Assembly (NCBI GenBank): GCA_963727445.1
Contig: CAVSGI010000013.1
Location: 17,316-81,315 of the forward strand
Length of the DNA stretch: 64,000 nt
Direction: 5' to 3'
Source of the DNA: an uncultured delta proteobacterium
GTDB lineage: Bacteria; Myxococcota_A; Polyangia; Polyangiales; B10-G4
This document shows positions 1,292 through 19,311 of the stretch, one piece after another. The translations under genes and the position numbers were made by a program. Within the stretch, counting starts at the first letter, position 1. Each line of letters starts with the position of its first letter. The notes under the pieces were generated by a model. That model did not search any database. It was not told where the DNA came from and was given only the letters and a program-made list of their open reading frames with translations.

Positions 1292-2389
1292 TCAGGTCCA
1301 GGAGCTCCGACCGGGGAAGGGATCGTAGTCCTCGTCGCCTTCCTCCGACTCGGCCGCCTCCCGTTCCGTGTCCTTCGCCGCGTGCTCGACGATGTCGAGG
1401 GCAACGCGCGCCCGCTCGTCGCGCTGCCTGAGCGCCGCTTCGTCCACGACCTGCACCGTGTGCAGCCGATCCTTGTAGTCGAGGTCGAGCTTGCCCTGGG
1501 ACGGCAGCATGAAGACGCCGTAGAGGCGCGCGATGGCGCGCAGGCGCTCGATGGTGTCGACGGGCACGTGACACTCGGCATGGGTGATGATGTAGACGAT
1601 CGGGGTGCGGCGTTCGCGGCGGGCCACGCGCGAGACTTCGCCCGCGAGCAGGCCGAAGACCTTGGCGTAGTTGCGGCCGTGCTCGCCCTTGAAGCAGAGC
1701 ACGTAGGGAACCGAGATCCCGCCCGTCTCCGAGCGACCGGGGCGCGCATGCTGCGCTTCGTAGAGGCGCGAGTCGAAGAAGCGAAGGTAGACGTCCTCGC
1801 CGCGCAGGGTGAGCTTCTTGACGAGGGTCAGGGCGAGGCCGCGCGCGAAGACCGATCGCTGTCCGCGCATCGAGGCCGAGGCGTCCACGCAGATGTAATG
1901 AAGGCGCCGGTCCTCCTCGTGCTGCTTCTCGCGCGCGTAGTAGAAGACCTCGTTCTCGACGAAGCGCATGTCGAAGAGGAGCTCGTCGAAGGCCAGCTCG
2001 GAGAGCACCAGCGAGTCGATGGAGCCGCGACGCTCGACGCCGGAGTAGCCGTCGACGCTGAAGGTCTGCGCGCCCGAGGCCTTCTTGGTCTCGAGGACAC
2101 TGGGGAGCAGGTCCAGGCTGAAGTTGACGACGTCGTTCGCCTCGGGGGACGAAAAGACGTTCAAGAGGTCGAGCATGTTGAGCGCGCCCATGGCGCCGGC
2201 CTCCGCGCCGAAGAGCCCGACGAGGCGCAGGGTGTCGAGGTCGACCTGCTCGAAGGCGATCACCAGGCGGAGTTGGTTGTCGGCGATGAAGCGCAGGAAC
2301 GCGAGGTCAGCGCTGCGATCGGTGGCGGAGAAGAGCGCGGGCAGCTCGCGGTCGAGGTCGCGGTAGACCTCGGGATCGAGCGGGAGCAT
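1292..2389 (-). CDS. von Willebrand factor A (VWA) domain protein
   Basis: 365-aa ORF. MIDAS motif hhhhDxSxS in 'LHYICVDASASMRG'. The rest has non-shadow composition. It probably continues upstream through a frameshift (see 2307-2819). Confidence 0.7.
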   Translation of the reverse strand: MLPLDPEVYRDLDRELPALFSATDRSADLAFLRFIADNQLRLVIAFEQVDLDTLRLVGLFGAEAGAMGALNMLDLLNVFSSPEANDVVNFSLDLLPSVLETKKASGAQTFSVDGYSGVERRGSIDSLVLSELAFDELLFDMRFVENEVFYYAREKQHEEDRRLHYICVDASASMRGQRSVFARGLALTLVKKLTLRGEDVYLRFFDSRLYEAQHARPGRSETGGISVPYVLCFKGEHGRNYAKVFGLLAGEVSRVARRERRTPIVYIITHAECHVPVDTIERLRAIARLYGVFMLPSQGKLDLDYKDRLHTVQVVDEAALRQRDERARVALDIVEHAAKDTEREAAESEEGDEDYDPFPGRSSWT

Positions 2390-2896: not shown

Positions 2897-4522
2897 TCAC
2901 TGCGGCGCGAGCGGGGCGGCGTTCTGCGGGCGCGGTCGGGGCCGACGAAGGGTGATGCGAACGGGCGACTCGTCGGCGACGGTGATCGTCCGTTGCTCCG
3001 GCGTTCGACCGCGCGTCTGCAAGCGGACCTGCACCGGCTCTCCACCGGGCAAGGGCAGGTCGTAGGGCGTCTCCCCCAGCACCACCCCGTTCACTACGAC
3101 CTGCGCTCCTCGGGGCGTCGACTCGATGCGGCGGGTGATCACTTCGGGCTCGGGCTCGGGCGCGACTTCGGGCTCGGGCGCGACTTCGGGCTCGGGCACG
3201 ACTTCAGGCTCGGGCACGGGCGCCGCAGCGGCCGTCTCGACAGGCGCCACTTCCGCGGGGGGCGCGGCGTCCTCCGTGCTTTGATCGGCCCCCGACGCAC
3301 CGTTGTTCGAGAACACGAAGAAGCCGAGGAGGGCCACGACCGCCAGCACGCCCGCCACCAGGAGCGGCACCGGTGGACGCTTTTCCCCCGGCTCCGTCGC
3401 CGTCGCCGGCTGGTCGATCGAATCCCGCGCCTCCGCGCTCGGCGGCGCGGCCTCGATCACTTCGTCCAGGGTCTCGACGCGCTTCGCCGCAGCCACCTCG
3501 CCGCTGGTCCACGCCTCGTTCCACGCCTCGAGCATCGCGGCCGCGTCTTCGAAGCGCTCGTCGGGGTCCTTGGCGAGCCCGCGCAGGATCCAGTCCTCGA
3601 CCGCCTGCGGAAGCCCTTCGCGGAAGTTGCTCGCGTGGGGTGGTGGCTCCGTCGCGTGAAGCACGACGCAGTCGTAGACCGTCTGGCCCGCGAAGGGCAC
3701 GCGCCCGGTGACCATCTCGAAGACCATGCAGGCCACGCTGTAGAGATCGGCGCGACGGTCCACGCCCTTGGTGGAGCGACCCTGCTCGGGCGCCATGTAG
3801 AGGGGCGTGCCGAGGATCTGCCCCGTCTGCGTGATGCCCGTCTCCAGCTCGGCGTCGCGCATCTTCGAGATGCCGAAGTCGACCACCTTGACGATCTGCC
3901 GGCTCCCCTTCTGCGCGAGGAAGATGTTCTCGGGCTTGAGGTCGCGGTGGATCACACCCGCGTGATGAGCGGCGCCGAGGGCGTCCAGGATCTGACGCAC
4001 GTAGACGCGGGTCTCGTCATCCGGGAGGTGCCCCTGATGCTCGATCGCACGCTCGAGGCGCTCGCGCAGGTCCTCGCCGTTGAGGAACTCCATGATGACG
4101 TAGATCGATCCGTCGTCGGTGCGACCGAGATCCGTCACGTCCACGATGTTCTCGTGGTCGATGGAGCTCGCGGTCCGCGCCTCCTGACGCAGGCGCTGAA
4201 TCGCATTGGCGTCGTAGCGATGATGCGGCGCCACCACCTTCGCCGCGAAGCGGCGCCCGAGCTCCTTGTGCTCCACCAGGTAGACCGAGCCCATGGCGCC
4301 GGCGCCGATGCGCTCGATCACCTCGTACACACCGCCGAGGACGTCGCCTTCGGAGAAGAGCGCCTCGGGCCCGTCGGCCCCGCCCAACACCTGGGTCGCG
4401 GCGTCCTGTGTCGGGGCGATCGCCCCATCGACGGCATGTCGCTCGCCAGACGCCAGGGTCTCGCCCTCGGGGTCGACCTGCCGCTTCGCCTTCTTGCGTT
4501 CGTCGACCTTCTGCCCCGCCAT
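2897..4522 (-). CDS. Hanks-type Ser/Thr protein kinase with a TM segment and C-terminal PEGA domain
   Basis: GxGxxG 'IGAGAMGSV', VAIK-like 'AAKVV', catalytic loop 'HRDLKPENIFL', DFG 'VDFGIS', APE 'YMAPE'. TM helix 'PLLVAGVLAVVALLGFFVF'. (PEPEVA)n linker. PEGA-like tail 'ESTPRGAQVVVNGVVLGETPYDLPLPGGEPVQVRLQTRG'. Confidence 0.85.
   Translation of the reverse strand: MAGQKVDERKKAKRQVDPEGETLASGERHAVDGAIAPTQDAATQVLGGADGPEALFSEGDVLGGVYEVIERIGAGAMGSVYLVEHKELGRRFAAKVVAPHHRYDANAIQRLRQEARTASSIDHENIVDVTDLGRTDDGSIYVIMEFLNGEDLRERLERAIEHQGHLPDDETRVYVRQILDALGAAHHAGVIHRDLKPENIFLAQKGSRQIVKVVDFGISKMRDAELETGITQTGQILGTPLYMAPEQGRSTKGVDRRADLYSVACMVFEMVTGRVPFAGQTVYDCVVLHATEPPPHASNFREGLPQAVEDWILRGLAKDPDERFEDAAAMLEAWNEAWTSGEVAAAKRVETLDEVIEAAPPSAEARDSIDQPATATEPGEKRPPVPLLVAGVLAVVALLGFFVFSNNGASGADQSTEDAAPPAEVAPVETAAAAPVPEPEVVPEPEVAPEPEVAPEPEPEVITRRIESTPRGAQVVVNGVVLGETPYDLPLPGGEPVQVRLQTRGRTPEQRTITVADESPVRITLRRPRPRPQNAAPLAPQ
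3118..3215. repeat. 18-bp tandem repeat (gacttcgggctcgggcgc)n encoding (PEPEVA)n in the kinase linker
   Basis: Direct tandem copies are visible in the sequence at 3120-3210. Confidence 0.7.
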
Positions 4523-4568: not shown

Positions 4569-6272
4569 TCAGGGCTCGTGGATCAAGTGGATGGGTTCCC
4601 TGACTCCTATCTGGGCGGTGGTCGACCAGATCCGAAGATCGTAGTCATTGACCTCCGGAATGCAGAAACCATTCGTGGTGTCGGTGATCACGCCACTCTG
4701 GGCAAAGAAGTTCACATCGGCGTCCAGGAAGAAGGCACACGGTCGTGTGTCCTTCACTTCGAAGGTGCGCACTTGAACGGCCGCACCCGCGCTGGCCTTG
4801 ATCCCCAAATTCGGGAACCGGGTAGGGACGACGAGATCGACGACTCGGAGATCGTTCCCCATCAACTCGCCTCCGGATGATACGTCGATGCCAATTCGGG
4901 CGAACGTTTGCAGGCGAGCGGCGTTGATGTCGAGAGTGCCTCCACCGACCTGGACCATGACGTCAGGCAGTCGGTCCCGAGGATTCGAGTCATCGACCTG
5001 AAGACCGTTGATCAACACGTCCTGGAGGAGCAGGTATCCCCCTTCCACCCAGACCGCGCGACCCAGGGGTGGATCCGGCGGCGTCCCGTGGGCGTCCCAC
5101 GGGACGCCTTCCACAGCCGGAAAGACGCTCGAGTAGAAGCGCGCATCGCCGGATAGCATGTGAACTCCCACCAACGTGCCGCCTTCGGCCCCTCCCCGAA
5201 CAATCGAGTTGCGCAGCTCCAGGCATGGCTCTTCGGTTTCGTCGCATTCGATGACGATGGCCTCGGGCTCCGGCTCGCCAGGCCCGGCACCGACGATGTC
5301 ATCGATGGCCGTGTGCTCCAACACGACCCTCGCCGTTTCGCTCACGCGCACCGCCCCCGATGGGCAGCGCGAGATCACCACGTCGACGGCGTCGAGCTCG
5401 GCGCTCCCGGAGACGGTCAAACACGGATCCGACTCGGCATCGATCTGAACGCCATGCAACGCGACCTTCGCTGCCCCGACGACTCGGATCGGACCGCGGA
5501 CGCGGCTCGCACGCATGGTCAGCTCGCCCTCCAGTCGCACCGGCCCTTCGACGATGCTGTCCTCGACGATCGAAGCGGTGCCCGAGTCCCAGAGCGCGTC
5601 CGAGGCCCCGTCCGGAGCGCGGATGGAAACGTCGCGGAGAAATGCGCCTTCGCCCTCCAGGCGTATCCCCGCCAACAACCGCGCTCGTGATGGGCAGGTG
5701 CCGTAGAGCGACGTCGCGCTCCCCAACACGACGGGCTCCGAGACCTCTCCGTCGAACAAGATCGTTTCGGCGGTTGGGTCGGCCGCCGCTTCAGCGATGG
5801 TGCCGTATGGCCGGTCGTAGCTCCCATCTCCTCCGGCTTCACCGACGCGTACGAAGCGCAAGCCATCCGGCTGGGGAAACGGAAGACTGCAGGCGTCGAC
5901 GCCGGACCGACTGACCACCGGAGCACATGCCGTCAGCCCGTCCCCCGCCGGCACCTGGAGATCGACCCCACACTCCTGGCTCCGGCCTTCGCCCCAGTTC
6001 CATGGCTCGCAGAAGTCGGCCGTGCGAATGGTGTCCAACTCGCCAAAGGTCCAGCCGCGGAAACACGTGCCCAATAGATTCACCTCCTTGACTTCGTCCG
6101 CCGTCGGGCAGAACCCGGTATGGGTGCAGTCGGGGTCGCCGCAATCGTATAGGCCATCGTCGTCGTTGTCCTCGGCGTCGAGGCACGCGACCTCGTTGTC
6201 TTCCGGGGCGATCCCGGAGCCACTGACGTAACTACAGCCGGCCAGCAGCAGGAACGGGAGGACGATCCTCAT
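4569..6272 (-). CDS. Lipoprotein with parallel β-helix-like repeats; the true start is the internal Met at 6272
   Basis: The ORF-track N-terminus (6272-6851) is R/P-rich shadow. The internal start MRIVLPFLLLAGCSYV has a lipobox, is preceded by GGGGGGAGGA, and overlaps the upstream stop as ATGA. There is an acidic Cys motif LDAEDNDDDGLYDCGDPDC and repetitive VxGxxxV segments typical of right-handed β-helix proteins. Confidence 0.6.
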   Translation of the reverse strand: MRIVLPFLLLAGCSYVSGSGIAPEDNEVACLDAEDNDDDGLYDCGDPDCTHTGFCPTADEVKEVNLLGTCFRGWTFGELDTIRTADFCEPWNWGEGRSQECGVDLQVPAGDGLTACAPVVSRSGVDACSLPFPQPDGLRFVRVGEAGGDGSYDRPYGTIAEAAADPTAETILFDGEVSEPVVLGSATSLYGTCPSRARLLAGIRLEGEGAFLRDVSIRAPDGASDALWDSGTASIVEDSIVEGPVRLEGELTMRASRVRGPIRVVGAAKVALHGVQIDAESDPCLTVSGSAELDAVDVVISRCPSGAVRVSETARVVLEHTAIDDIVGAGPGEPEPEAIVIECDETEEPCLELRNSIVRGGAEGGTLVGVHMLSGDARFYSSVFPAVEGVPWDAHGTPPDPPLGRAVWVEGGYLLLQDVLINGLQVDDSNPRDRLPDVMVQVGGGTLDINAARLQTFARIGIDVSSGGELMGNDLRVVDLVVPTRFPNLGIKASAGAAVQVRTFEVKDTRPCAFFLDADVNFFAQSGVITDTTNGFCIPEVNDYDLRIWSTTAQIGVREPIHLIHEP

Positions 6273-7576
6273 TCCTCCCCCCAGGAAACGGCCGCGCTCG
6301 AAGCGGGAACAGTGCTTCGATCTGTCACGAAGTAGAGGATGACGGCCAACCCGAGGAGCGCCGCGCCAGTGACGAACAGTACGTCGGTGGCGAGACCGAG
6401 GGAGTCGACGGTCCGAGCAGTGCCCGACGTGTCGACACCGAGGGCCTTGCTCTGCTCGAGGTTGGTGTGCTCGACCAGATTGGCAATCCCCGTTCCGACG
6501 GCTGTGAGGACGGCTGCCGCCCCGGCCCCCCCGACGATCCAGGTCCAAACGGAGCGCTCGGCAGGCACCGGCCGAAGCGTGACGTTGAGCCAGGCGCGAG
6601 CGTCGGCACGAGGAGACACCTCGCCCTCCCACGGTTGGAGCCCCGGGGCGCGGACCTCGACTCGCTGGGCGTTTGCGCGGAGGGCTGTGAGGGAAAGTGG
6701 AGTGAAGCCTATCTGCTGCCCAGCGATGCGCACCTCGGCGTTTCGCGCGTTGGAGGTGATCGTCAGGCTCCCGGTCGGGGCCGGGAGATCCTCCCGGCTC
6801 AGGTGCACGCGCTCCGTCTCGCTGGCGACTACGGAGGCGACCGTACGCCAAGGTGGATACCCGAGAGCACGAACGATGACGTCGTAGCGGCCAGGCGGAA
6901 GATCCGCCTCGAGCGGCACCTCACCCTCCGCCACCAGCGCTCCGGCGGCATCCAGCACTCGCGCGCTCGCCTCCAGCGCGGCGCCGATCTGCAGCCGCCC
7001 GAGCACGCGTTGCAGCTCGAGTCGAACGGTCGAGGCCTCACCGAGCACGGCGGTGATCGATTCTTCGGCTCCCCCATACCCATTCATCACGACCCAGATC
7101 CGATGCTCGCCCGGCGCCAGCGCGAGTTGCCGTGGCGTCTGTCCGTAAGAGCCGTGTTCCTCCTGGTCCACGTAGATCTCGGCGCCTGGCGGGTCGGTCT
7201 CCACGGTGACCCGGGCCACGCGCGGGATCAGCTGCTCGATCGATTGGCGGGCGTAGGCCTGTCGCTCTTCGGCTCCTTCGACGTCGTCCTCTCCCTCCAT
7301 GTAGGCGGTGAAGAAATGATAAGCCTCGACAGGTTGATCGAGCTGCATGAAGCAGAGGGCGATGTTGTAGAGCGTGCGCGGATTCGGGCTGAGCTGCTGC
7401 GCGGAAAAGAACTCCTCGATCGCCTGCTGGTAGCGGCCACGCGTGTAGTACCGCTGCGCTTCGCGGTGATGAAACCTCGCCATCGCCGCGGTGTCGGCGT
7501 GCGCCTCGTGCGTGAAGGCGAGGAACGTAGTCGCGATTGTCGCGACGAAGAGGAGGCCGCTCAGCCGAAGTCGCAT
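6269..7576 (-). CDS. Signal-peptide protein with N-terminal TPR-like region, two PEGA domains and a C-terminal TM anchor
   Basis: Signal peptide MRLRLSGLLFVATIATTFLAFTHEAHA. PEGA-like blocks 'VTVETDPPGAEIYVDQEEHGSYGQTP...HRIWVVMNGYGG' and 'LTITSNARNAEVRIAGQQIGFTPL'. C-terminal TM 'TWIVGGAGAAAVLTAVGTGIA'. Confidence 0.7.
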   Translation of the reverse strand: MRLRLSGLLFVATIATTFLAFTHEAHADTAAMARFHHREAQRYYTRGRYQQAIEEFFSAQQLSPNPRTLYNIALCFMQLDQPVEAYHFFTAYMEGEDDVEGAEERQAYARQSIEQLIPRVARVTVETDPPGAEIYVDQEEHGSYGQTPRQLALAPGEHRIWVVMNGYGGAEESITAVLGEASTVRLELQRVLGRLQIGAALEASARVLDAAGALVAEGEVPLEADLPPGRYDVIVRALGYPPWRTVASVVASETERVHLSREDLPAPTGSLTITSNARNAEVRIAGQQIGFTPLSLTALRANAQRVEVRAPGLQPWEGEVSPRADARAWLNVTLRPVPAERSVWTWIVGGAGAAAVLTAVGTGIANLVEHTNLEQSKALGVDTSGTARTVDSLGLATDVLFVTGAALLGLAVILYFVTDRSTVPASSAAVSWGEE

Positions 7577-9426: not shown

Positions 9427-10113
9427 GTGTGGTCCTCATCACTCGTCGAGATGCCTCGAGCTACTGCATCCATCCTCGTCCGGGAGCCGACCCCCAAAGG
9501 GGAACCTCTCGATGCCGAGCGCGTGCTGGCGGCCGAGATCGCACCGGGATTCGACGACGCCACGCTCGTCCGGCGGGCCCTCGAGGGTGACACCTGGGCG
9601 GAAGAGGCCTTGTTTCGCCGCCATGTCCGGGTAATCGCCAGGACGGTGTTGCGACTTCTGGGCAATCGAAGCGAAGCGGAGGACGTCGTCCAGGACACCT
9701 TCGTTTCGGCGTTGGCCGACCTGCACAAGCTCCGGGATCCGTCCTCCGCTCGCACGTGGCTCATCGGGATCGCCGTTCACCGGGTCCACCGCCGGTTTCG
9801 CCGTCAGAAGCTGCGGCGGCTCCTCGGTCTCGAGCGCGCGTCCGAGGGGCCGCTCGAGCGACAGGCGAGCCCAGGACTAGACCCGGAGCGGCGCGCGGAG
9901 CTGGCCCTCCTCGATGCACAGCTCGAGCGCTTGCCCGCGAAGGATCGAACGGCGTGGATCCTCCGCAACGTCGAGGGCATGTCCCTCAAGGAGACCGCCG
10001 ACGCCATCGGCTGCTCCCTCGCGACAATCAAACGGCGCATCGCGAAGGCCGAGGCCGCAATCCGCGCTCACGTGGACCTCGCGCCACCATTGTCGGAGGT
10101 CTCCGATGGCTAG
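9427..10113 (+). CDS. ECF (σ70 group 4) RNA polymerase sigma factor
   Basis: Region-2-like 'EDVVQDTFVSALADLHKLRDPSSARTWLIGIAVHRVHRRFRR' and region-4 HTH 'RTAWILRNVEGMSLKETADAIGCSLATIKRRIAKA'. GTG start at 9427. Alternative ATG at 9451. Confidence 0.8.
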   Translation: MWSSSLVEMPRATASILVREPTPKGEPLDAERVLAAEIAPGFDDATLVRRALEGDTWAEEALFRRHVRVIARTVLRLLGNRSEAEDVVQDTFVSALADLHKLRDPSSARTWLIGIAVHRVHRRFRRQKLRRLLGLERASEGPLERQASPGLDPERRAELALLDAQLERLPAKDRTAWILRNVEGMSLKETADAIGCSLATIKRRIAKAEAAIRAHVDLAPPLSEVSDG

Positions 10114-11278
10114 GCTCTCTCGACCCGTGGACCAGCACCTCGACGATCCCGTCAACGAGGAGATGATGTACCGCCTGTGGCGCGGGGTGGGGCAGGCCCG
10201 CGCGGCTGCGCGGGGACAGAAGCCGTCTCGTTGGTTGATGCCTGCGCTCACCGGGGTCGGCGTCGGCGCGCTCGCCCTGGCGGCGCTGCTCTTCACTCTG
10301 CCGCCCAGCAGGGGGCCGGAGCCCCTTTCGCTCGCGACAAACGAGGCGCTTCCGAGCACCCTCAGCGCTGGCGCAGAGCCAGAGCACCTGCGTCTCTCCG
10401 ACACGTCCGAGATCGCGCTCGCGCCGGACACCGAGCTCCAGCTGGTCACGAACCATCGTGGCGTCTTCGAGACGCGCCTTCTTCGCGGCGTCGTCTCCAT
10501 GGACGTCACCCCCGGTGGTCCCCGACGATACCGCGTCGATTGCGGGCTCGCGCTGGTCGAGGTCGTCGGCACGCGGTTCGAGATCGAGCGGAGCGAAGCC
10601 GCGGTGGCCGTCCGGGTCTCGCGGGGGCGCGTGCGCGTCACAGACAGGGTGCGGTCGCGGGTGAGGGAGCTGGGTCCTGGCGATTCGTGGGCCATCCTCG
10701 CGGCACCGAGCGAGGCCGTCGCGCCGGCGCCGTCCCACCCGCCGGCCGCGCCCAGCCCAACGCCATCGTCGACGCGCGAGCCGAGCCCACCTCCGTCGAC
10801 TGGCTGGCGGCAGCTCGCCGCTCAGGGCCGCTGGGACGAAGCGTGGGACGAAGTGGGACCCGCGCGGATCGCGGCGCGCGCTCGGGCCGCGGACGGCGAC
10901 GAGCTCCTCGCCCTCGCCGATGTCGCACGTCAGTCGGGTCATCCAGAAGCGGCGGTAAGGCCGCTCGAGACGCTGCTGTCGCGCTATCCGAACGACGCGC
11001 GGGCCGGACTGGCCGCCTATACCCTCGGCATCCTCCGAATGGATCGCCTCGACCAACCGGCGGAAGCGGCGGAAGCCTTCGAGCGCGCGCTGTCGGCGGG
11101 GTTGCCGGAGCATCTCGTCGAGCACGCGATGGGCCGCCTCGCCGTCGCCCATCACCGCGCGGGAGAAGACGACGCCGCGCACACCGCCGCGCGACGCTAC
11201 CTGGCGCGGTTTCCCGATGGGCCGATGGCCCAGGACGTGAGAGCCTACGCGCGGGGGGGCGACGAATTCGATCCATGA
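10106..11278 (+). CDS. Anti-sigma factor (FecR-like) with a single TM helix
   Basis: Start MARLSRPV overlaps the σ-factor stop by 8 nt. TM 'WLMPALTGVGVGALALAALLFTL'. FecR-like β-rich segment 'GTRFEIERSEAAVAVRVSRGRVRV'. TPR-like C-terminus. Confidence 0.7.
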   Translation: MARLSRPVDQHLDDPVNEEMMYRLWRGVGQARAAARGQKPSRWLMPALTGVGVGALALAALLFTLPPSRGPEPLSLATNEALPSTLSAGAEPEHLRLSDTSEIALAPDTELQLVTNHRGVFETRLLRGVVSMDVTPGGPRRYRVDCGLALVEVVGTRFEIERSEAAVAVRVSRGRVRVTDRVRSRVRELGPGDSWAILAAPSEAVAPAPSHPPAAPSPTPSSTREPSPPPSTGWRQLAAQGRWDEAWDEVGPARIAARARAADGDELLALADVARQSGHPEAAVRPLETLLSRYPNDARAGLAAYTLGILRMDRLDQPAEAAEAFERALSAGLPEHLVEHAMGRLAVAHHRAGEDDAAHTAARRYLARFPDGPMAQDVRAYARGGDEFDP

Positions 11279-12405
11279 GGCGGCTGCGCTCATCGACCGT
11301 CGGCACGCTCGGCGGCACGGTGCTCGCGCTCTGGATGGCGACCGCCACTGCGCGCGCCGACGAGCCGACCCCGATGCCCGCGCGCGTCGCGGTGCAGCCT
11401 CCCGGCTGTGAGCTCACCGTGGAGGAGATCGTACGCCTCCTTCGGATCGAGCTCACCGGGGACGGGGTGAGCGACGTCTCAATCTCGTCCTCCGATGGCG
11501 AACATGCGCTTGGGGAAGAGGATAGCGACACGACCGCGGCGATCGTGCGGCTGGAGGCGATCCCGTGCGAGCCAAGCGCGGTCGAGCTCGCCGTGACCAT
11601 CGACAATCTCGTCACGCACAAGCAGGTGCGCCGGGTCCTGTCGACGAGCGGTTTGCCCGAGGCGACCCGCGCTCGCGCCATCGCGCTCGGCATCGCCGAG
11701 CTGCTGCGCTCCAGCTGGGCCGAGCTGTCGCTCGCGGACGTTCAATCGTCGCCCCTGGCGGCGTGGCTCCGCACGCGCCTTCGCATCGAGCTCACGGACC
11801 GCTCGAGGGCCGCCGACACAGAGTCCACGGAAGCGCTCGCGACCCCCGAGCCCACCCCGACACCCGTCGACAAGCCGACCGCGCGGGTCCCTGCGCTCCT
11901 CGGCGCGGCGACGCTGGCCCTCACCGCGATGCCGAGCGGAGGAAGTGCCTCCATCGGTGGGGCCCTCGACGGCGCGTTTCGGCTCCTGGTGGACGCCTTC
12001 GCGCTTCGCGTGGAGATCGCCGCGCAGCTCGGTCGCGCCGAGGCGCGGCTGGGCGGTGTCGATCTCGGCATGGCCACCCTCGCGCTGATCCCCGAGCTTC
12101 GCAGCCCCATGGGCCCGGCGCTCTTCGCCGTCGGCCCGAGCGTGACACTGGGTGTCGGCTGGGCGAGTGGTCAGCCCGACCCCGGTATCGACGCGTCGTC
12201 GGGTGCCGAGCTCATCGTCTCGGCGGGGGCGGAAGTGCGCGTGCTCTTTCCGCTCACCAGCCAACTCTGGGGCACCTTCGGCCTGTCCGGGGGGTACATG
12301 GTTCGCGGCCTGTCGACCGTCGTCGACGCGGCCCCCGATGGTGGCCTCGTCGGGCCCTACGTCGCGCTGCGCGTCGGCATCGCCCTTTCGTCGAGGGGAT
12401 CATGA
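11275..12405 (+). CDS. Secreted hypothetical protein, co-operonic with the ECF σ/anti-σ pair
   Basis: ATG at 11275 overlaps the anti-σ stop as ATGA. Signal peptide MRRLRSSTVGTLGGTVLALWMATATARA. The ORF-track N-terminus (10177-11274) is shadow. Confidence 0.55.
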   Translation: MRRLRSSTVGTLGGTVLALWMATATARADEPTPMPARVAVQPPGCELTVEEIVRLLRIELTGDGVSDVSISSSDGEHALGEEDSDTTAAIVRLEAIPCEPSAVELAVTIDNLVTHKQVRRVLSTSGLPEATRARAIALGIAELLRSSWAELSLADVQSSPLAAWLRTRLRIELTDRSRAADTESTEALATPEPTPTPVDKPTARVPALLGAATLALTAMPSGGSASIGGALDGAFRLLVDAFALRVEIAAQLGRAEARLGGVDLGMATLALIPELRSPMGPALFAVGPSVTLGVGWASGQPDPGIDASSGAELIVSAGAEVRVLFPLTSQLWGTFGLSGGYMVRGLSTVVDAAPDGGLVGPYVALRVGIALSSRGS

Positions 12406-13595
12406 GACGGCTGCTGCTGATCGCGCTTCTGCTCGCCATCGGCTGCGCGGACGCTCCCGTCGAAGTCCTCGGCCGGGCGCCTCCCACCTACTGGGGCGAC
12501 GTCGCCCCGGTCCTCGGGCCCTCGTGCACCTGCTGCCACCAACCCGGTGGCTCCGCGCCGAGCCTCGCCTCCCCCGAAGAGCTGGGCCTGTATTTTGACG
12601 ACGCCCTGCGCACGATCGCCGAGGGTTCGATGCCCCCGCTGCCCGCCGGGCCGGCCACCGAGGGCTGCGCCATGAAGCAGCCAGAGGCCCCGCGCCTCTC
12701 GGCCGCCGCGGTGGCGCTGCTTCAGCGTTGGGACGACGGGGGGCGCTCGCCGGGTGATCCCGCGTCGGCCCCCCCGCTGCCGGCGACCTGCCGCCCACCG
12801 CCCGCGGACGCGGAGACCATCGCGGTCACCGTGCCCCCGTTCGACCTCGGCGCCGAGCGAGTCTTGACGGTTTGCTTTGCCGTCGATTTCGATCGACCCG
12901 TGGACCGATACGTCACGGGCCTACGCGTTCAAAGCGCGCCGCAGACGCTGCGCGCGCTCGCTCTCTACGTCCCCGATGCATTCGACCTCGCCGACGCCGA
13001 CGGTGAGCCTTGTCCGGCGTACGACCCCTTCACAACTCCCGTCCTGGCGGCGACCTGGGGAGGTGAATCCGAGATGCGCTACGACGACGGCGGCGTACCC
13101 CTGCCGCGCGACGGGCCCCTGGCCATCCGCGCCGTGTATGACCTCACCTTCGCAGATGGCGACGCGCGCCCGAGGCCCGTCGACCTCGAGATCGAGCTTC
13201 GCCCCGAGAGCTCCGTGTCACTGGTGGACCACTTGATTCTGAGCGTGGATGCCGATCTGCCTCTCGAGGCGGGCGGGATCCGAGAGAGGGGGACTGTCGG
13301 TAGCTTCGTCGCGCCCCGGCGCATCGTCGGCGCATTCATGGTGATGCACGAGCTCGGCCAGCGCGTGGAGGTCGAGCTCCGCCGAGACGGAGATGAGACC
13401 TGTCGGATCGTCGACGATCCCTTCGAGGTCGGGTGGGTCAGACCGGTGGTCTTCGAGCCGCCATTCCCCCTCGTCGATGAGTTCGCGCTGCGGTGCCGAT
13501 GGGACCTGAGCGGACAGAGCGAGGACGTCCCCTTCGGCAACCCCCCGCAAGGGGAAGCCTGCCTCGCGCTGTTCCTCGCCGAAGCGCCTCCATGA
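12402..13595 (+). CDS. Lipoprotein with an N-terminal CxxCH cytochrome-c-like module and a degenerate PHM-like domain that has lost its copper ligands
   Basis: ATGA overlap with the previous gene. Lipobox MRRLLLIALLLAIGCADA. 'WGDVAPVLGPSCTCCHQPGG...MPPLP' aligns with the N-terminus of 13610-14797. The positions of HH, H, HxH and M in the paralog are replaced here (TLRALALYV, IRAVYDL, MVMHELGQR, GEACLALF). Confidence 0.6.
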   Translation: MRRLLLIALLLAIGCADAPVEVLGRAPPTYWGDVAPVLGPSCTCCHQPGGSAPSLASPEELGLYFDDALRTIAEGSMPPLPAGPATEGCAMKQPEAPRLSAAAVALLQRWDDGGRSPGDPASAPPLPATCRPPPADAETIAVTVPPFDLGAERVLTVCFAVDFDRPVDRYVTGLRVQSAPQTLRALALYVPDAFDLADADGEPCPAYDPFTTPVLAATWGGESEMRYDDGGVPLPRDGPLAIRAVYDLTFADGDARPRPVDLEIELRPESSVSLVDHLILSVDADLPLEAGGIRERGTVGSFVAPRRIVGAFMVMHELGQRVEVELRRDGDETCRIVDDPFEVGWVRPVVFEPPFPLVDEFALRCRWDLSGQSEDVPFGNPPQGEACLALFLAEAPP

Positions 13596-13609: not shown

Positions 13610-14797
13610 TCACCCCTCCTCCGCGAAAACGAACGCGAGGCACATCTCGTCCTCGGTGCCGGTGCCGAAGATGACGGGGTCGGCGGTGGTGTTGTCGAAG
13701 GTGCAGTGGAGCCGGATTTCGTCGTTTGGACCGACTTCGACGGGCTCTTGGAAGAAGTAGTAGCTCTGCCAGTCGAAGTCCCACGCGGGTACGTCGACGA
13801 GGGTGCGTTCAGCGCCTCCCCCCACAGGCACGAGAGAGACGGTGATGCGCCGGCCGAGGAGGTGCATGTGGGGGAAAACGCCGTAGAGCGTGCGAGGACC
13901 GATGAGCACCTGCTGGTCGACTTCGTACCCCACTGTGCGTGGGGGAATCGAAAAGCTCGTCTCGGCGATCAGGAGCGAGCGCGCGGGCCGCTCAACCGAA
14001 GGCACGGTCTGGAGCTGAACCTCGGCCGGAGCCACGACCGGCTCGGCGAGCGGGTGGTAGTGCACCTGCACGACGAACGGCTGGTCCGCCCCCACGCGCA
14101 CGCCGGTTCCGGGCGGGAAGCGCGACGCCCGCTCGCCCGGGGCCCAACCACCCACCATTCGCGTGCCGAACACGCCCGCGTCGCCAAAGCACGAATAGCC
14201 GGGCCCGGCCTCGCTCTCGTCCCTCGCGCGCGCCGCTGCGGCCGCGCTCTCGTCCACGGTCGCGAAGAGGATGATGTGATGGACCACCCGTGTATCGCCG
14301 GGGATGACCTCGAGCGCGGTGACGTAAGCGTCTCGCGGTGGACCCTCGGCGACGAAACAACGGTAGTCATCGTCGACGCCTGCCGGGGGAACGTACTCGG
14401 CGCCGACCTCGAAGACGAAATCCGGTGACTCGAGCTCCGTGGTCGGCGGCGTCAGAGCCATGCCAGTGCCAATCTCGGGCCCGCGCGCGAGCCACGCCAG
14501 CAGTGCGTCGCGCTCCTCGCCGGGCATGATTCGGGTATCGTCGAGGGGCACGCACCCCTCGCAGGTCGCGGGCGGAAAGGGGGGCATCGTTCCATCGGCG
14601 ATCACGGAGGCGACCAGTGATGCCCGCGGCGCGAAGTCCGCCGCTTCGGTGAGCGGAAAGGGTGCGATGCCGGCTTGGTGGTGGCAGCCGATGCATCGCC
14701 GCGCCACGATCGGTGCGACATCCGCCCAGCCGGTCTCCGCGTCGGGTGCGCAGGCGCTGAGGACGCCGAGCAACGAGAGGAGCGCGCCGTGTTTCAT
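13610..14797 (-). CDS. Lipoprotein combining a c-type cytochrome-like CxxCH module with a PHM/DBH-type copper type II monooxygenase core
   Basis: Lipobox MKHGALLSLLGVLSACA. 'DVAPIVARRCIGCHHQAGIAPF...DGTMPPFPP' is a CxxCH motif with an MPP Met ~30 aa downstream. 'YRCFVAE', 'VHHIILFA', 'GGWAPGERASRFPPGTGVRVGADQPFVVQVHYHP', 'FPHMHLLGR' and 'GTGTEDEMCLAF' parallel the PHM motifs VHHMLLFGC, ...FRVGGETGSKYFVLQVHYGD, H-x-H and TSSDEMCNLY. All six Cu ligands (HH+H, HxH+M) are present. Confidence 0.7.
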   Translation of the reverse strand: MKHGALLSLLGVLSACAPDAETGWADVAPIVARRCIGCHHQAGIAPFPLTEAADFAPRASLVASVIADGTMPPFPPATCEGCVPLDDTRIMPGEERDALLAWLARGPEIGTGMALTPPTTELESPDFVFEVGAEYVPPAGVDDDYRCFVAEGPPRDAYVTALEVIPGDTRVVHHIILFATVDESAAAAARARDESEAGPGYSCFGDAGVFGTRMVGGWAPGERASRFPPGTGVRVGADQPFVVQVHYHPLAEPVVAPAEVQLQTVPSVERPARSLLIAETSFSIPPRTVGYEVDQQVLIGPRTLYGVFPHMHLLGRRITVSLVPVGGGAERTLVDVPAWDFDWQSYYFFQEPVEVGPNDEIRLHCTFDNTTADPVIFGTGTEDEMCLAFVFAEEG

Positions 14798-14905: not shown

Positions 14906-16456
14906 GTGCCCATGAGGGGGGTTGCGTTCGCGTGGGGAATGCTGGTGCTCGCGGCGGCGTGCGGCGACGGCACGGGTGGGGGGGACGACACGGGGACGAT
15001 GGACACGGCACCCGACATAGTCGAAGGGGGAACGGACGCGGACAGCGGACCTCCGCCGGGCCTCGACGACCGCTGTCTTCCCCTGTGGGAGGCGGCGGTC
15101 GGCGCGGCCGAGAGGTACGGGGCGGCCGGTGGGGGCTTCGCGCTCGTACTGGAGGGTGCGCTGGTCTGTACGGTTCCCTACGGAGCGGAGCGTCGCGAGT
15201 CCGGGTCCCCGCTGGTGACGACCGAGACCTGGTTCCGCTGGCCGCAGTGGGACGGCCTGGTCATGAAGCTCGCCGCGCTCGAGCTCGCCGACGCAGGAGC
15301 GCTGGACCTGGATGCGTCGGTCGAGTCGCTCGTCGGCGATCTCGACCTCGAGCCGGCGGTGTGGGCCAGCGCGCTCACGGTTCGACATCTCGTCTGGGGT
15401 CGGTCGGGGCTGCCTTCTACAGCCCCCCCTTTCGCGGGACATGTGGACTTCGGGGAGGCATGTGCCGAAGACGGGCCGAGCGCACGACAGTGGTGGGACG
15501 CCTTCGAAGACGGCGGGCGGGTCATGTGGGCAGAGCCGGGCTTCACACACACGTACGGGCGGAACGAGGGCGTCCTGTTGCAGCTCGTGCTCGAAGAGGT
15601 GACCGGCGAGAGCGTCGCCGACACGATCCAGCGCACGATCTTCGACCCGGTAGGCATGGACAATTCCCGTATCGGCTTCGGGCCGGAGCATCACGAACGA
15701 CAGATGTATGGGTATGTGACCAGCGACATCTCCACGGACACCGTCACGCGCCTCGACCACCTGGTGAACGCCTGCGGCGCGGCGTTGGGCACCTTCGGTT
15801 TGACGACGACCCTCGACGACGCCGCGCGGCTCACCCTGACCCTCGCCCGGGGCGGCGTCGACGAAGGCGGCGCGCGCGTGCTCGCGGAGAGCAGCATGGC
15901 GGCGCTCGTGGAGCCGCGCGGCCCGACCTGGAACAACTTCGAGGTGGCCGCCGGGCCGGTGGTGTACCTCCACGAGGGCGCTCCCTTGTTGCACACGCCC
16001 TCGCACCTCGCGGGCTTCAGCGGCGGCGTCACCCTCGTGCCCGACGCGGGCTTCGGGGTGATCGAGCTGAGCAATCTGGACTACTGGCGCATACGGCATG
16101 TGGCCGAGGTGGCGGCGGTCGAGCGCTACGTGGGCGCGCCCTGGCCCAACGCCAACTACGAGGTACCCATGCCCTGGGAACCCTCCGACATGGAGCTTTC
16201 GGAATACGCAGGCGCCTACGTCGCTCCCATCGGGTGCCTCGAGGACTCGATCGAGCTGCAGGACGGGCGACTCGTGGCGCGTGGATTCGCCCTCGTGCCG
16301 CGTACGCCGGATCGATTCAAGAGCCCTGCTGGGCACCTGGCGTTCTGGCGGCGGGACGGGGCCATCGCCGAGTTGCTGTCGCCTGCGGACGAGTTCGCGT
16401 TCTACCCCGTGGACGCCGTACCGCCGGAGATCGCAGCCCTGGCCTCGTGTCCGTGA
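14906..16456 (+). CDS. Lipoprotein of the β-lactamase / serine-hydrolase fold, apparently lacking the SxxK nucleophile
   Basis: Lipobox MPMRGVAFAWGMLVLAAACGDG. 'YGRNEGVLLQLVLEEVTGESVADTIQRTIFDPVGMDNS' matches the class-C β-lactamase/esterase block (YxN...GxS...IFxPLGM). The expected 'FxIGSxSK' position reads 'FRWPQWDGLVMK' with no Ser. Confidence 0.6.
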   Translation: MPMRGVAFAWGMLVLAAACGDGTGGGDDTGTMDTAPDIVEGGTDADSGPPPGLDDRCLPLWEAAVGAAERYGAAGGGFALVLEGALVCTVPYGAERRESGSPLVTTETWFRWPQWDGLVMKLAALELADAGALDLDASVESLVGDLDLEPAVWASALTVRHLVWGRSGLPSTAPPFAGHVDFGEACAEDGPSARQWWDAFEDGGRVMWAEPGFTHTYGRNEGVLLQLVLEEVTGESVADTIQRTIFDPVGMDNSRIGFGPEHHERQMYGYVTSDISTDTVTRLDHLVNACGAALGTFGLTTTLDDAARLTLTLARGGVDEGGARVLAESSMAALVEPRGPTWNNFEVAAGPVVYLHEGAPLLHTPSHLAGFSGGVTLVPDAGFGVIELSNLDYWRIRHVAEVAAVERYVGAPWPNANYEVPMPWEPSDMELSEYAGAYVAPIGCLEDSIELQDGRLVARGFALVPRTPDRFKSPAGHLAFWRRDGAIAELLSPADEFAFYPVDAVPPEIAALASCP

Positions 16457-16905
16457 GACCGGGGGGTGACCGGACCGGGGGGGGGAGATCGTGACCGGGT
16501 TGGCGGGGGGGCGGGGAGATCGTGACCGGGTTGGCGGCGCGACGGATGACGCTGAACGACGCTTCGCGCGCCATGAAGAGGTCAGTTGTGTGAGCATGAG
16601 CGCCCGGCGCGTCTCCAACCGCACAGCAGAAGCGGAATCGACCGCTGTCAGGGGGAGATCGGACCGGGGGGAGATCGTGACCGGGTTGGCGGCGCGACGG
16701 GGAGATCGTGACCGGGTTGGCGGCGCGACGGATGACGCTGAACGACGCTTCGCGCGCCATGAAGAGGTCAGTTGTGTGAGCATGAGCGCCCGGCGCGTCT
16801 CCAACCGCACAGCAGAAGCGGAATCGGCCGCTGTCAGCAGTGTTCTCTCTGTCGCAGGTCCTCGGCGAATACACCGATGCGTGTCCGCGCTTCGCGCAGA
16901 CACAC
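16457..16905. repeat. Tandemly duplicated transposon-flanking repeat array
   Basis: 'ggggagatcgtgaccgggttggcgg' occurs four times in full and twice in part. A ~135-bp unit (ggagatcgtgaccgggttggcggcgcgacggatgacgctgaacgacgcttcgcgcgccatgaagaggtcagttgtgtgagcatgagcgcccggcgcgtctccaaccgcacagcagaagcggaatcg[a/g]ccgctgtcag) is duplicated at ~16516-16650 and ~16695-16830. A subterminal imperfect hairpin sits at 16871-16912 (acaccgatgcgtgtc ... gacacacatcggtg). Confidence 0.8.
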
Positions 16906-18138: not shown

Positions 18139-19311
18139 CTACTGCGAAAACTTCCCGCTCTGGAACACGTGCCCCAGCAGCTGGTCGACGCGCGCCGTCC
18201 ACTCCTGCGCCGGCTGGGTGCCCATCGCCTGAAGCGCCGCCTTGATCTCGTTGAGCGCCTTCAAGTGACTGAAGAGCTGGATGTCGCTCATCGGCCGGTC
18301 GCTGGTCAGCAGACCCTTGATGCGGTTGATCTCGCTGATGAGCGCGTCCATCCCGACGTCGGCGGCGCCGAAGCGCCGCGCCTGCGGGTGCTCGCGGTAC
18401 CACGCTTCGAGCACCGGCCCCACGATCCCGTCCAGGATCTCCGCCTGGTCGAGGTTGTTCCACGTGTGGCGCAGCACGAAGAAGTCGCTCGGATCGGACT
18501 GCGCCCGCCCGTCGAGGAGCGCGCTCGCAGCGAAGAGCTTCAGCATCTTGATCGCGCGGCGGTCGGAGAAGCTCACGCCCTCGGAGCGGATCTGGAAGAT
18601 CAGCCCCTTGTAGCCCGCGAGGAACTCCTCGCTGAACTGCATCCTCTCGGCGAAGCCCGCGTGCAGCCCGTGCAGCTCCTGCGCCGTCAGCAGCGGCTGC
18701 AGCCGATCGTAGTTGCCGCTGATCTTCGACACCTCGTGCGCGATGCCCTTCAGCAGCAGATCGTGGAAGTGATAGCTGTCGAGGTTGTCCGAGTGCACGC
18801 GCAGCAGGAAGCGGTCGAAGACCGCCATCAGATCCTCGTCGTTCGGCACCTCGTTCGACGCCCCGAAGGCGCTGATCAGCGGCACGCGGAACGTCTTGCC
18901 GCCCACCGTGTAGAGCCGCTCGTTCAGCACGCTCAAGAGCGAGTTGAGGATCGCGCTGTTCGCCTTGAAGACCTCGTCCAGGAACGCGATCTCCGCCTGC
19001 GGCAGCATCCCGTCCATGCGCCGCTCGTACTGCCCCTCGCGGAACTTCTGGATGTCGATGGGACCGAAGAGCTCGTTCGGCTCCGTGAAGCGCGTCAGCA
19101 GATACTCGAAGTAGTTCGCCTGGACGAGCTTGGAGAAGAGCCGGACCAGCGCGCTCTTGGCCGTGCCGGGCGGGCCGATGAGCACCATGTGCTCGCCGGC
19201 GATGGCGGCGATCATCATCAGCCGCACCACCTCGCTCTTGCCGAGGAAGGTGCTCTCGAGCTGGCGAGCCACCTGCTGGAGCTTCTGGGCAGTCTGTGTC
19301 GGGTTGCTCAC
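18139..19311 (-). CDS. MoxR-family AAA+ ATPase, RavA-like
   Basis: Walker A 'LIGPPGTAKS', Walker B 'IAFLDEVFKA', and 'AILNSLLSVLNERLY...SNEVP'. Long colinear similarity to the E. coli RavA N-terminal AAA+ module (YERSHAIRL.../[57 protein letters not shown]). GTG start overlaps the upstream stop. Confidence 0.75.
   Translation of the reverse strand: MSNPTQTAQKLQQVARQLESTFLGKSEVVRLMMIAAIAGEHMVLIGPPGTAKSALVRLFSKLVQANYFEYLLTRFTEPNELFGPIDIQKFREGQYERRMDGMLPQAEIAFLDEVFKANSAILNSLLSVLNERLYTVGGKTFRVPLISAFGASNEVPNDEDLMAVFDRFLLRVHSDNLDSYHFHDLLLKGIAHEVSKISGNYDRLQPLLTAQELHGLHAGFAERMQFSEEFLAGYKGLIFQIRSEGVSFSDRRAIKMLKLFAASALLDGRAQSDPSDFFVLRHTWNNLDQAEILDGIVGPVLEAWYREHPQARRFGAADVGMDALISEINRIKGLLTSDRPMSDIQLFSHLKALNEIKAALQAMGTQPAQEWTARVDQLLGHVFQSGKFSQ

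Follow-up and report, generated by a model that had tools for sequence, protein, structure and literature searches.

Peptidylglycine alpha-hydroxylating monooxygenase (PHM) and dopamine beta-hydroxylase (DBH) are textbook examples of non-coupled binuclear copper monooxygenases. Animals rely on their two-copper core to produce amidated hormones and noradrenaline. Electrons enter at one copper site, CuH; both the way in which they enter and their crossing of about 11 Å to the second site, CuM, are debated. In PHM, CuH is re-reduced by ascorbate and then passes electrons to CuM. Elsewhere, enzymes carry a tethered cytochrome c as their donor, as in the cytochrome-fused copper nitrite reductase of Ralstonia pickettii and in cd1 nitrite reductase. 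Here we describe a gene, gene C, whose product joins a cytochrome c-like module to a PHM/DBH-type core. It lies in a 64,000-nucleotide stretch of contig CAVSGI010000013.1 from an uncultured delta proteobacterium (Myxococcota_A; assembly GCA_963727445.1), which we call the window. Gene C occupies positions 13610..14797 on the minus strand, stop codon included, and encodes a 395-amino-acid lipoprotein with the cytochrome c-like module followed by a two-copper monooxygenase core. This assignment draws on the list of open reading frames (ORFs), codon-position G+C, Pfam, phmmer searches of the PDB, an AlphaFold2 model and Foldseek.

The closest described enzyme is PHM, the catalytic core of PAM (1PHM, 1OPM). 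PHM and gene C share two beta-sandwich domains and copper ligands in the order H-H...H / H-x-H...M at similar spacing, and the equivalents of PHM Q170 and Y79 are conserved in the gene C family. They differ in that identity is 20–23% and that gene C is bacterial, predicted to be lipid-anchored, provided with an N-terminal heme c-type domain and devoid of a PAL domain. DBH, tyramine beta-monooxygenase and MOXD1 (4ZEL) share the catalytic core and also have an accessory domain N-terminal to the CuH domain. In DBH this accessory domain is a DOMON domain, whereas in gene C it is cytochrome c-like, and gene C lacks the dimerisation domain. Monoheme cytochrome c domains of the PccH, FoxE and YhjA type (4RLR, 5MAB, 9QDT; identity 19–25%) are found free-standing or in other enzymes. 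The cytochrome-tethered nitrite reductases follow the same principle, in that a periplasmic redox enzyme carries its own monoheme class-I cytochrome c domain as the point of electron entry, but they use a cupredoxin trimer or a d1 beta-propeller and reduce nitrite, rather than activating O2 and hydroxylating a C-H bond as we propose for gene C.

Copper core and family conservation

Sequence searches and structure prediction support the C-terminal 280 residues of gene C as a complete PHM/DBH-type core, as the original prediction had claimed. The Cu2_monooxygenase families for both halves match above their curated Pfam cut-offs: Cu2_monooxygen (PF01082) at residues 136–248 (34 bits, cut-off 30) and Cu2_monoox_C (PF03712) at residues 304–390 (48 bits, cut-off 23). 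The sole strong phmmer matches in the PDB were rat PHM (E = 1.4e-9, residues 117–390) and human DBH (E = 1.5e-6). Pfam found no DOMON domain in the protein at E ≤ 1; the domain at the N-terminus consists of helices and resembles cytochrome c. NCBIfam returned no match for gene C or for its neighbouring paralog, gene B.

Pfam, conservation and the PHM alignment delimit two predicted beta-sandwich domains, both encoded on the minus strand: a CuH (electron-transfer copper) domain at residues ~117–265 (14003..14449) and a CuM (oxygen-binding, catalytic copper) domain at residues ~266–393 (13619..14002). The putative CuH ligands are H173 and H174 (14276..14281) and H246 (14060..14062), which align with PHM H107, H108 and H172. 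The putative CuM ligands are H310 and H312 (within 13862..13870) and M385 (13643..13645), which align with H242, H244 and M314. Q244 aligns with PHM Q170 and Y145 with Y79. The ligand motifs begin at residues 172 (VHHII), 243 (VQVHYH), 309 (PHMHLL) and 383 (DEMC); CIGCH stands at 35–39 and MPP at 71–73. These motifs and the lipobox had been quoted from sequence alone, and each was found in its place.

Conservation was counted in a family alignment of 119 homologs. C38, H39, H173, H174, H310, H312 and M385 are invariant (119/119), and C35, M71-P72-P73 and H246 are present in 118/119. The full set of CxxCH, MPP and the six copper ligands is intact in 118/119, and the CxxCH motif precedes the HH pair by 131–146 residues in 118 sequences. 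Conservation across the family indicates that the motifs of gene C are not due to chance. Together with the PDB alignment, it bears out the claim that all six PHM/DBH copper ligands are present with their spacing.

We built an AlphaFold2 model of the protein from 119 family sequences. The model is confident (mean predicted local distance difference test, pLDDT, 92; predicted template modelling score, pTM, 0.88), and Foldseek recognises it as a PHM/DBH-like two-domain beta-sandwich, which agrees with the proposed likeness to the PHM core. Its top matches are 31 PHM and DBH entries (E = 5e-17 to 6e-12), among them 1phm (5e-17) and 4zel (1e-16); besides these, nothing scored better than 1e-5. Target-normalised TM-scores against PHM chains are 0.59–0.72. 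Given both Pfam domains, the six ligands and the PHM/DBH fold, gene C fits the PHM/DBH superfamily in each feature open to computational testing.

Cysteines are unevenly conserved in the alignment: C147 and C386 occur in 119/119 homologs, C203 in 107/119 and C365 in 70/119. Since the PHM-style partner positions C203 and C365 are less conserved than C147 and C386, the disulfide pattern of the family may differ from that of PHM.

A word-indexed protein search with gene C returned 833 relatives. The best non-self relatives are 38–42% identical at 92–99% query coverage. Scanning one genome per species, we found the heme-PHM fusion in at least 589 species genomes from five or more phyla. The best relatives suggest a source within the Myxococcota. 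Listed carriers include Sandaracinaceae, Myxococcaceae, Archangium, Polyangiaceae and Nannocystaceae within the Myxococcota, as well as Acidobacteriota, Planctomycetota, Gaiellales, Armatimonadota and Oligoflexus. Cultured carriers are Lujinxingia vulgaris TMQ2, Polyangium sp. 6x1, Tundrisphaera sp. TA3 and Nannocystaceae ST9. The phylogenetic distribution of the fusion, which the original prediction had raised as a check, is thus that of a very widespread family that is not confined to the source genome. Relatives are named in databases as ‘hypothetical protein’, ‘monooxygenase’, ‘ascorbate-dependent monooxygenase’ or ‘mono/diheme cytochrome c family protein’, so the cytochrome c-PHM fusion is already visible in public databases. 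A full-text literature search, which was not all-inclusive, found no published description or characterisation of a bacterial cytochrome c-PHM fusion. The architecture is therefore known from public domain annotations, and the family is uncharacterised as far as the searched literature shows.

The residues around the predicted active site bear on the substrate. In PHM, R240, N316 and Y318 hold the C-terminal glycine carboxylate and the backbone of the peptide. They align with F308, L387 and F389 of gene C. Among the 119 homologs, position 308 is F, T, A, M, Y or G and never Arg; position 387 is L, I, V or M, plus one Ala and one Gly, hence always aliphatic; and position 389 is mostly F. The pocket looks hydrophobic. 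Because the carboxylate-binding residues of PHM are replaced, the substrate is probably neutral or hydrophobic and not a glycine-extended peptide. These replacements bear directly on the idea that gene C encodes a genuine bacterial PHM, with glycine-extended peptides as the substrates that it amidates or trims. PHM is the best match in both sequence and structure, and beta-lactamase-family (peptidase-like) genes recur beside the gene cluster described below, which would suit such an enzyme. With the triad replaced and no PAL-like lyase partner found in Pfam scans of the genes surrounding gene C, however, a peptidylglycine-amidating role is unlikely, and we regard the explanation as a whole as very improbable.

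Heme module and proposed electron supply

The gene C ORF has an ATG start and G+C fractions of 0.83 and 0.52 at third and second codon positions (GC3 and GC2), in a window with ~70% G+C. This is the codon-position signature of a real gene. It is monocistronic, and no promoter-like or terminator-like sites were found around it. The N-terminus, MKHGALLSLLGVLSAC, reads by eye as a short signal peptide with the lipobox L-S-A-C16 at its end (residues 1–16; 14750..14797, minus strand). A lipobox-like motif also stands ahead of the heme module in 62 of 96 short-form homologs. The product is accordingly predicted to be lipid-anchored and exported to the periplasm; the signal peptide and lipobox would place it where heme c gets attached.

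Residues 20–115 (14453..14740, minus strand) are predicted to form a three-helix module resembling class-I c-type cytochromes. The putative heme c attachment motif, C35-I-G-C38-H39 (14681..14695, minus strand), comes after a helix at residues 24–34 in the AlphaFold2 model and is conserved in homologs. M71-P72-P73 (14579..14587, minus strand) is the candidate loop for the distal (sixth) heme ligand: besides being conserved, M71 aligns in the full-length profile alignment on the stretch gkgrMPgF of cytochrome c6 (2dge), which holds the axial Met of c6. We scanned 34 modules from family members against Pfam, keeping matches at E ≤ 1. Cytochrome_CBB3 matched all 34 (best E = 8e-7), followed by PccH (24), Cytochrom_C (19) and Haem_bd (17). 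Several gene C homologs carry a precomputed PF13442 match. A profile of the module, compared with the PDB, matched c-type cytochromes almost exclusively, including PccH (0.0015), the heme domain of hydrazine synthase alpha (0.0033) and cytochrome c6 (0.0034).

Profile matches and models thus support a class-I, PccH-like cytochrome c domain at the N-terminus of gene C. The original prediction had proposed a cytochrome c-like module from CxxCH and MPP, and this part stood; its likeness to the planctomycete-type PSCyt1 did not. The PSCyt1 family (‘Planctomycete cytochrome C’, PF07635) left gene C unmatched in Pfam and matched one of the 34 family modules, at E = 0.088.

Modelled alone, the heme module reaches a pLDDT of 84, and 19 of its 21 weak Foldseek matches are cytochromes c, cytochrome cd1 c-domains included. 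Residues 69–88 have a pLDDT of 88–93 in the full-length model and 66–71 when the module is modelled alone. This gain suggests that the MPP loop packs against the copper core.

On this evidence we propose, with moderate confidence, that the gene C product is an ascorbate-independent non-coupled binuclear copper monooxygenase of the PHM/DBH class, in which a tethered heme feeds CuH. Heme c would be bound covalently through thioethers to C35 and C38, with H39 and M71 as axial ligands, after maturation by a periplasmic system. It would be reduced, one electron at a time, by a respiratory-chain carrier in the periplasm and would hand each electron to CuH (H173, H174, H246), in the next domain along the sequence. 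CuH would then relay the electron across the inter-domain cleft to CuM (H310, H312, M385), as in PHM. CuM would bind O2, abstract a hydrogen atom from a C-H bond and hydroxylate the substrate, with two heme-mediated electrons consumed per turnover; we suggest this chemistry because the ligand set is invariant. The heme domain abuts the CuH domain, whose copper is the point of electron entry in PHM, which makes the heme the obvious substitute for ascorbate. Ascorbate is not expected in the bacterial periplasm. We infer the role of a built-in electron donor from the domain order, the export signal and this lack of ascorbate in bacteria.

Several observations weigh against the proposal. The Cytochrome_CBB3 score of gene C itself stays below the cut-off of 27, whether the full-length protein (16.5 bits) or the separate module (20.8 bits) is scanned. 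For the model of the module on its own, Foldseek gave nothing significant (best E = 1.3). We surveyed genomic context in five annotated neighbourhoods and by clustering the flank ORFs of the retrieved loci against one another, and neither revealed an operon conserved across the broad family, so context gives no pointer to the substrate. Lastly, the adjacent copper-less paralog B keeps its heme motif, which means that the heme module can serve a purpose other than feeding CuH. The first two points would also fit a CxxCH module that is heme-free, with a structural or metal-binding function (Cu, Zn or disulfide), and a core reduced by a separate small-molecule or protein donor. A thiol-redox domain adjoins the module in a redoxin-fused subfamily, which would suit the same explanation. 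Weighed beside the cytochrome c profile matches across the family, we find a heme-free module most improbable.

If a tethered heme does feed CuH, PHM/DBH chemistry is not confined to ascorbate-using eukaryotes. A tethered one-electron heme donor would let electron entry be triggered and followed optically or electrochemically. A heme-tethered PHM core would surprise many copper-enzyme specialists and offer a tractable means of studying how electrons reach CuH, a long-standing question. It would also provide a bacterial periplasmic scaffold for ascorbate-free biocatalytic C-H hydroxylation. Because the family is large (at least 589 species, with Myxococcota, Acidobacteriota and Planctomycetota prominent), its substrate could mark a common, unrecognised periplasmic oxidation in soil and sediment bacteria.

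Paralog B and the sigma/FecR operon

Gene B (12402..13595, plus strand) encodes a 397-amino-acid lipoprotein paralog of gene C (28% identity, BLASTP E = 3e-17). The two genes are convergent, and 14 bp separate their stop codons. Gene B retains C-T-C-C-H and MPP, but none of the six copper ligands survives: LR stands in place of HH, V in place of H246, M-V-M in place of H-x-H and A in place of M385. Pfam returned no match for it, and its exact sequence has no database record. A word-indexed protein search with gene B found no relatives; its clade came from an exhaustive search of representatives. The clade is small (P0121, P0122, P0123 and P0128, 28–32% identical to B in the clade alignment). 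All four members have C-W-C-C-H, with an extra Cys, and MPP, and none has the copper ligands. Judged by their PHM-like scaffold without copper ligands, these paralogs look like pseudo-monooxygenases.

Gene B closes an operon of four translationally coupled genes (9451..13595, plus strand), which overlap by 4–8 nt. The first gene encodes a sigma-70 factor of the extracytoplasmic function (ECF) type (9451..10113, start inferred; Pfam Sigma70_r2, Sigma70_r4_2 and Sigma70_ECF). It is followed by a FecR-type anti-sigma factor with C-terminal TPR repeats (10106..11278, start inferred at ATG 10106; FecR 51 bits, TPR_14 35 bits) and by gene A, which encodes a 376-amino-acid secreted protein (11275..12405, GC3 0.87) with no Pfam family above cut-off. 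The C-terminal half of the gene A protein is Gly/Ala-rich and looks beta-barrel-like by eye. Upstream of gene C, across a 108-bp intergenic region, a divergent gene encodes a beta-lactamase-family protein (PF00144, 72.5 bits; 14906..16456, plus strand).

A metagenome scan for further B-like loci returned mostly short contigs. B-like genes were found at L087:730-1938, L088:5452-6627 and L089:1538-2710. On L087, a copper-competent C-like gene converges on the B-like gene, and the ends of the two genes abut; the C-like protein is 38% identical to gene C of the window, and the adjoining ECF sigma factor is 65% identical to the window's. On L088, the genes for sigma, for FecR and for an A-like protein (33% identical to gene A, E = 1e-42) are divergent from the B-like gene, which is convergent with a C-like gene having both Cu2_monooxygenase domains and a Cytochrome_CBB3 match. 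L093 preserves the cluster in part: sigma and FecR, together with the beginning of a B-like gene. As its tblastn figures equal those of L088, the two are probably one sequence or nearly so. Sigma orthologs adjoining the B-like genes on L087, L088 and L093 are 57–65% identical to the window's, and L088 and L093 each have a FecR homolog. The B/C pairing therefore recurs on at least two other metagenomic contigs, further ones being partial or near-duplicate. A B-like neighbour was found at 0 of 80 species-representative loci, which makes the B/C cluster specific to a narrow clade.

On L089, the B-like gene lies between two beta-lactamase-family genes (L089:3-1547 and L089:2773-3939), one of them a full-length homolog of the window's (26% identity, E = 1e-23). 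By eye, Q-W-D-G stands in the window copy, and S-L-Q-R in the L089 copy, where the catalytic S-x-x-K is expected. Because of these substitutions, the beta-lactamase-family proteins beside the cluster may be non-catalytic.

In the source lineage, enzyme C probably works with paralog B or is co-regulated with it. Paralog B would be expressed from the ECF-sigma/FecR operon, and it might serve as redox partner, as non-catalytic subunit or as part of a sensor. The same arrangement invites another explanation: gene C would bind heme and copper but act as an electron-transfer oxidase or as a sensor of redox state, O2 or copper, read out through paralog B and ECF-sigma/FecR. The convergence of C with a copper-less paralog that keeps the heme motif and closes the sigma/FecR/A/B operon is in its favour, as are the recurrence of the cluster on L087 and L088, the partial sigma/FecR/B fragment on L093 and the lack of a conserved substrate-related neighbour in the surveyed neighbourhoods. 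Yet the six ligands, Q244 and Y145 are under strong purifying selection (118–119 of 119 homologs), as a working PHM-type site predicts, and most family members have no nearby B paralog or ECF system, as the representative loci attest. We consider a sensor or oxidase unlikely.

A monooxygenase with a heme-fed CuH remains our preferred reading of gene C, and a wider version of it is possible, which we offer tentatively. Gene C would represent an uncharacterised class of respiratory-chain-driven periplasmic C-H hydroxylases in which a tethered heme c replaces ascorbate, paired here with a copper-less, heme-retaining pseudo-enzyme under dedicated ECF-sigma/FecR cell-surface signalling. This would amount to a new kind of extracytoplasmic oxidation module that has a sensor of its own. 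Paralog B and the linked ECF/FecR genes offer a genetic handle on when enzyme C is used.

Genomic context and other window features

Across the broad family, one partner alone recurs, an AhpC/TSA-Redoxin domain with a thioredoxin fold. A subfamily of ~640 amino acids carries it as an N-terminal fusion (P0053, P0060, P0109 and about 20 other homologs of 580–646 amino acids). In five genomes it is encoded by a separate gene directly upstream of the enzyme (L036:3736-4299, L040:4395-5255, L066:5081-5851, L074:5065-5799 and L077:5123-5923). The redoxin domain has a single conserved Cys in F-Y-S-x-E-C-P-I-S/A-N, and the fused subfamily has a second conserved stretch, V-G-C-P-[IL]-P, directly ahead of the heme module. 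Thiol chemistry for heme or copper loading and peroxide scavenging in uncoupled turnover are possibilities for its role. The gene C protein of the window has no redoxin domain.

In the L036 locus, from a Fimbriimonadaceae metagenome-assembled genome, two tandem enzyme copies (L036:4221-5846 and L036:5872-7449) lie behind the redoxin gene, and the first copy has an EF-hand pair at its C-terminus. Other recurring flank clusters were antisense shadow ORFs and the kinases and response regulators common in these genomes. DNA polymerase III gamma/tau and methylmalonyl-CoA mutase occur near family genes as lineage-specific synteny.

No Rfam families or tRNAs were found in the window. A 186-bp tandem duplication (16480..16837; 1.9 copies, 97% identical) with inner 31-bp G-rich repeats, GGGGAGATCGTGACCGGGTTGGCGGCGCGAC, is intergenic, after the beta-lactamase-family gene, and has no Rfam match. 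Further genes, all on the minus strand, encode a bpMoxR AAA+ ATPase of MoxR-vWA-beta-propeller ternary systems (18139..19311; 259 bits), a protein with a weak ivWA match (1292..2389), a Ser/Thr kinase with a PEGA domain (2897..4522) and a TPR/PEGA protein (6269..7576). Genes of this kind are typical of Myxococcota and have no bearing on gene C.

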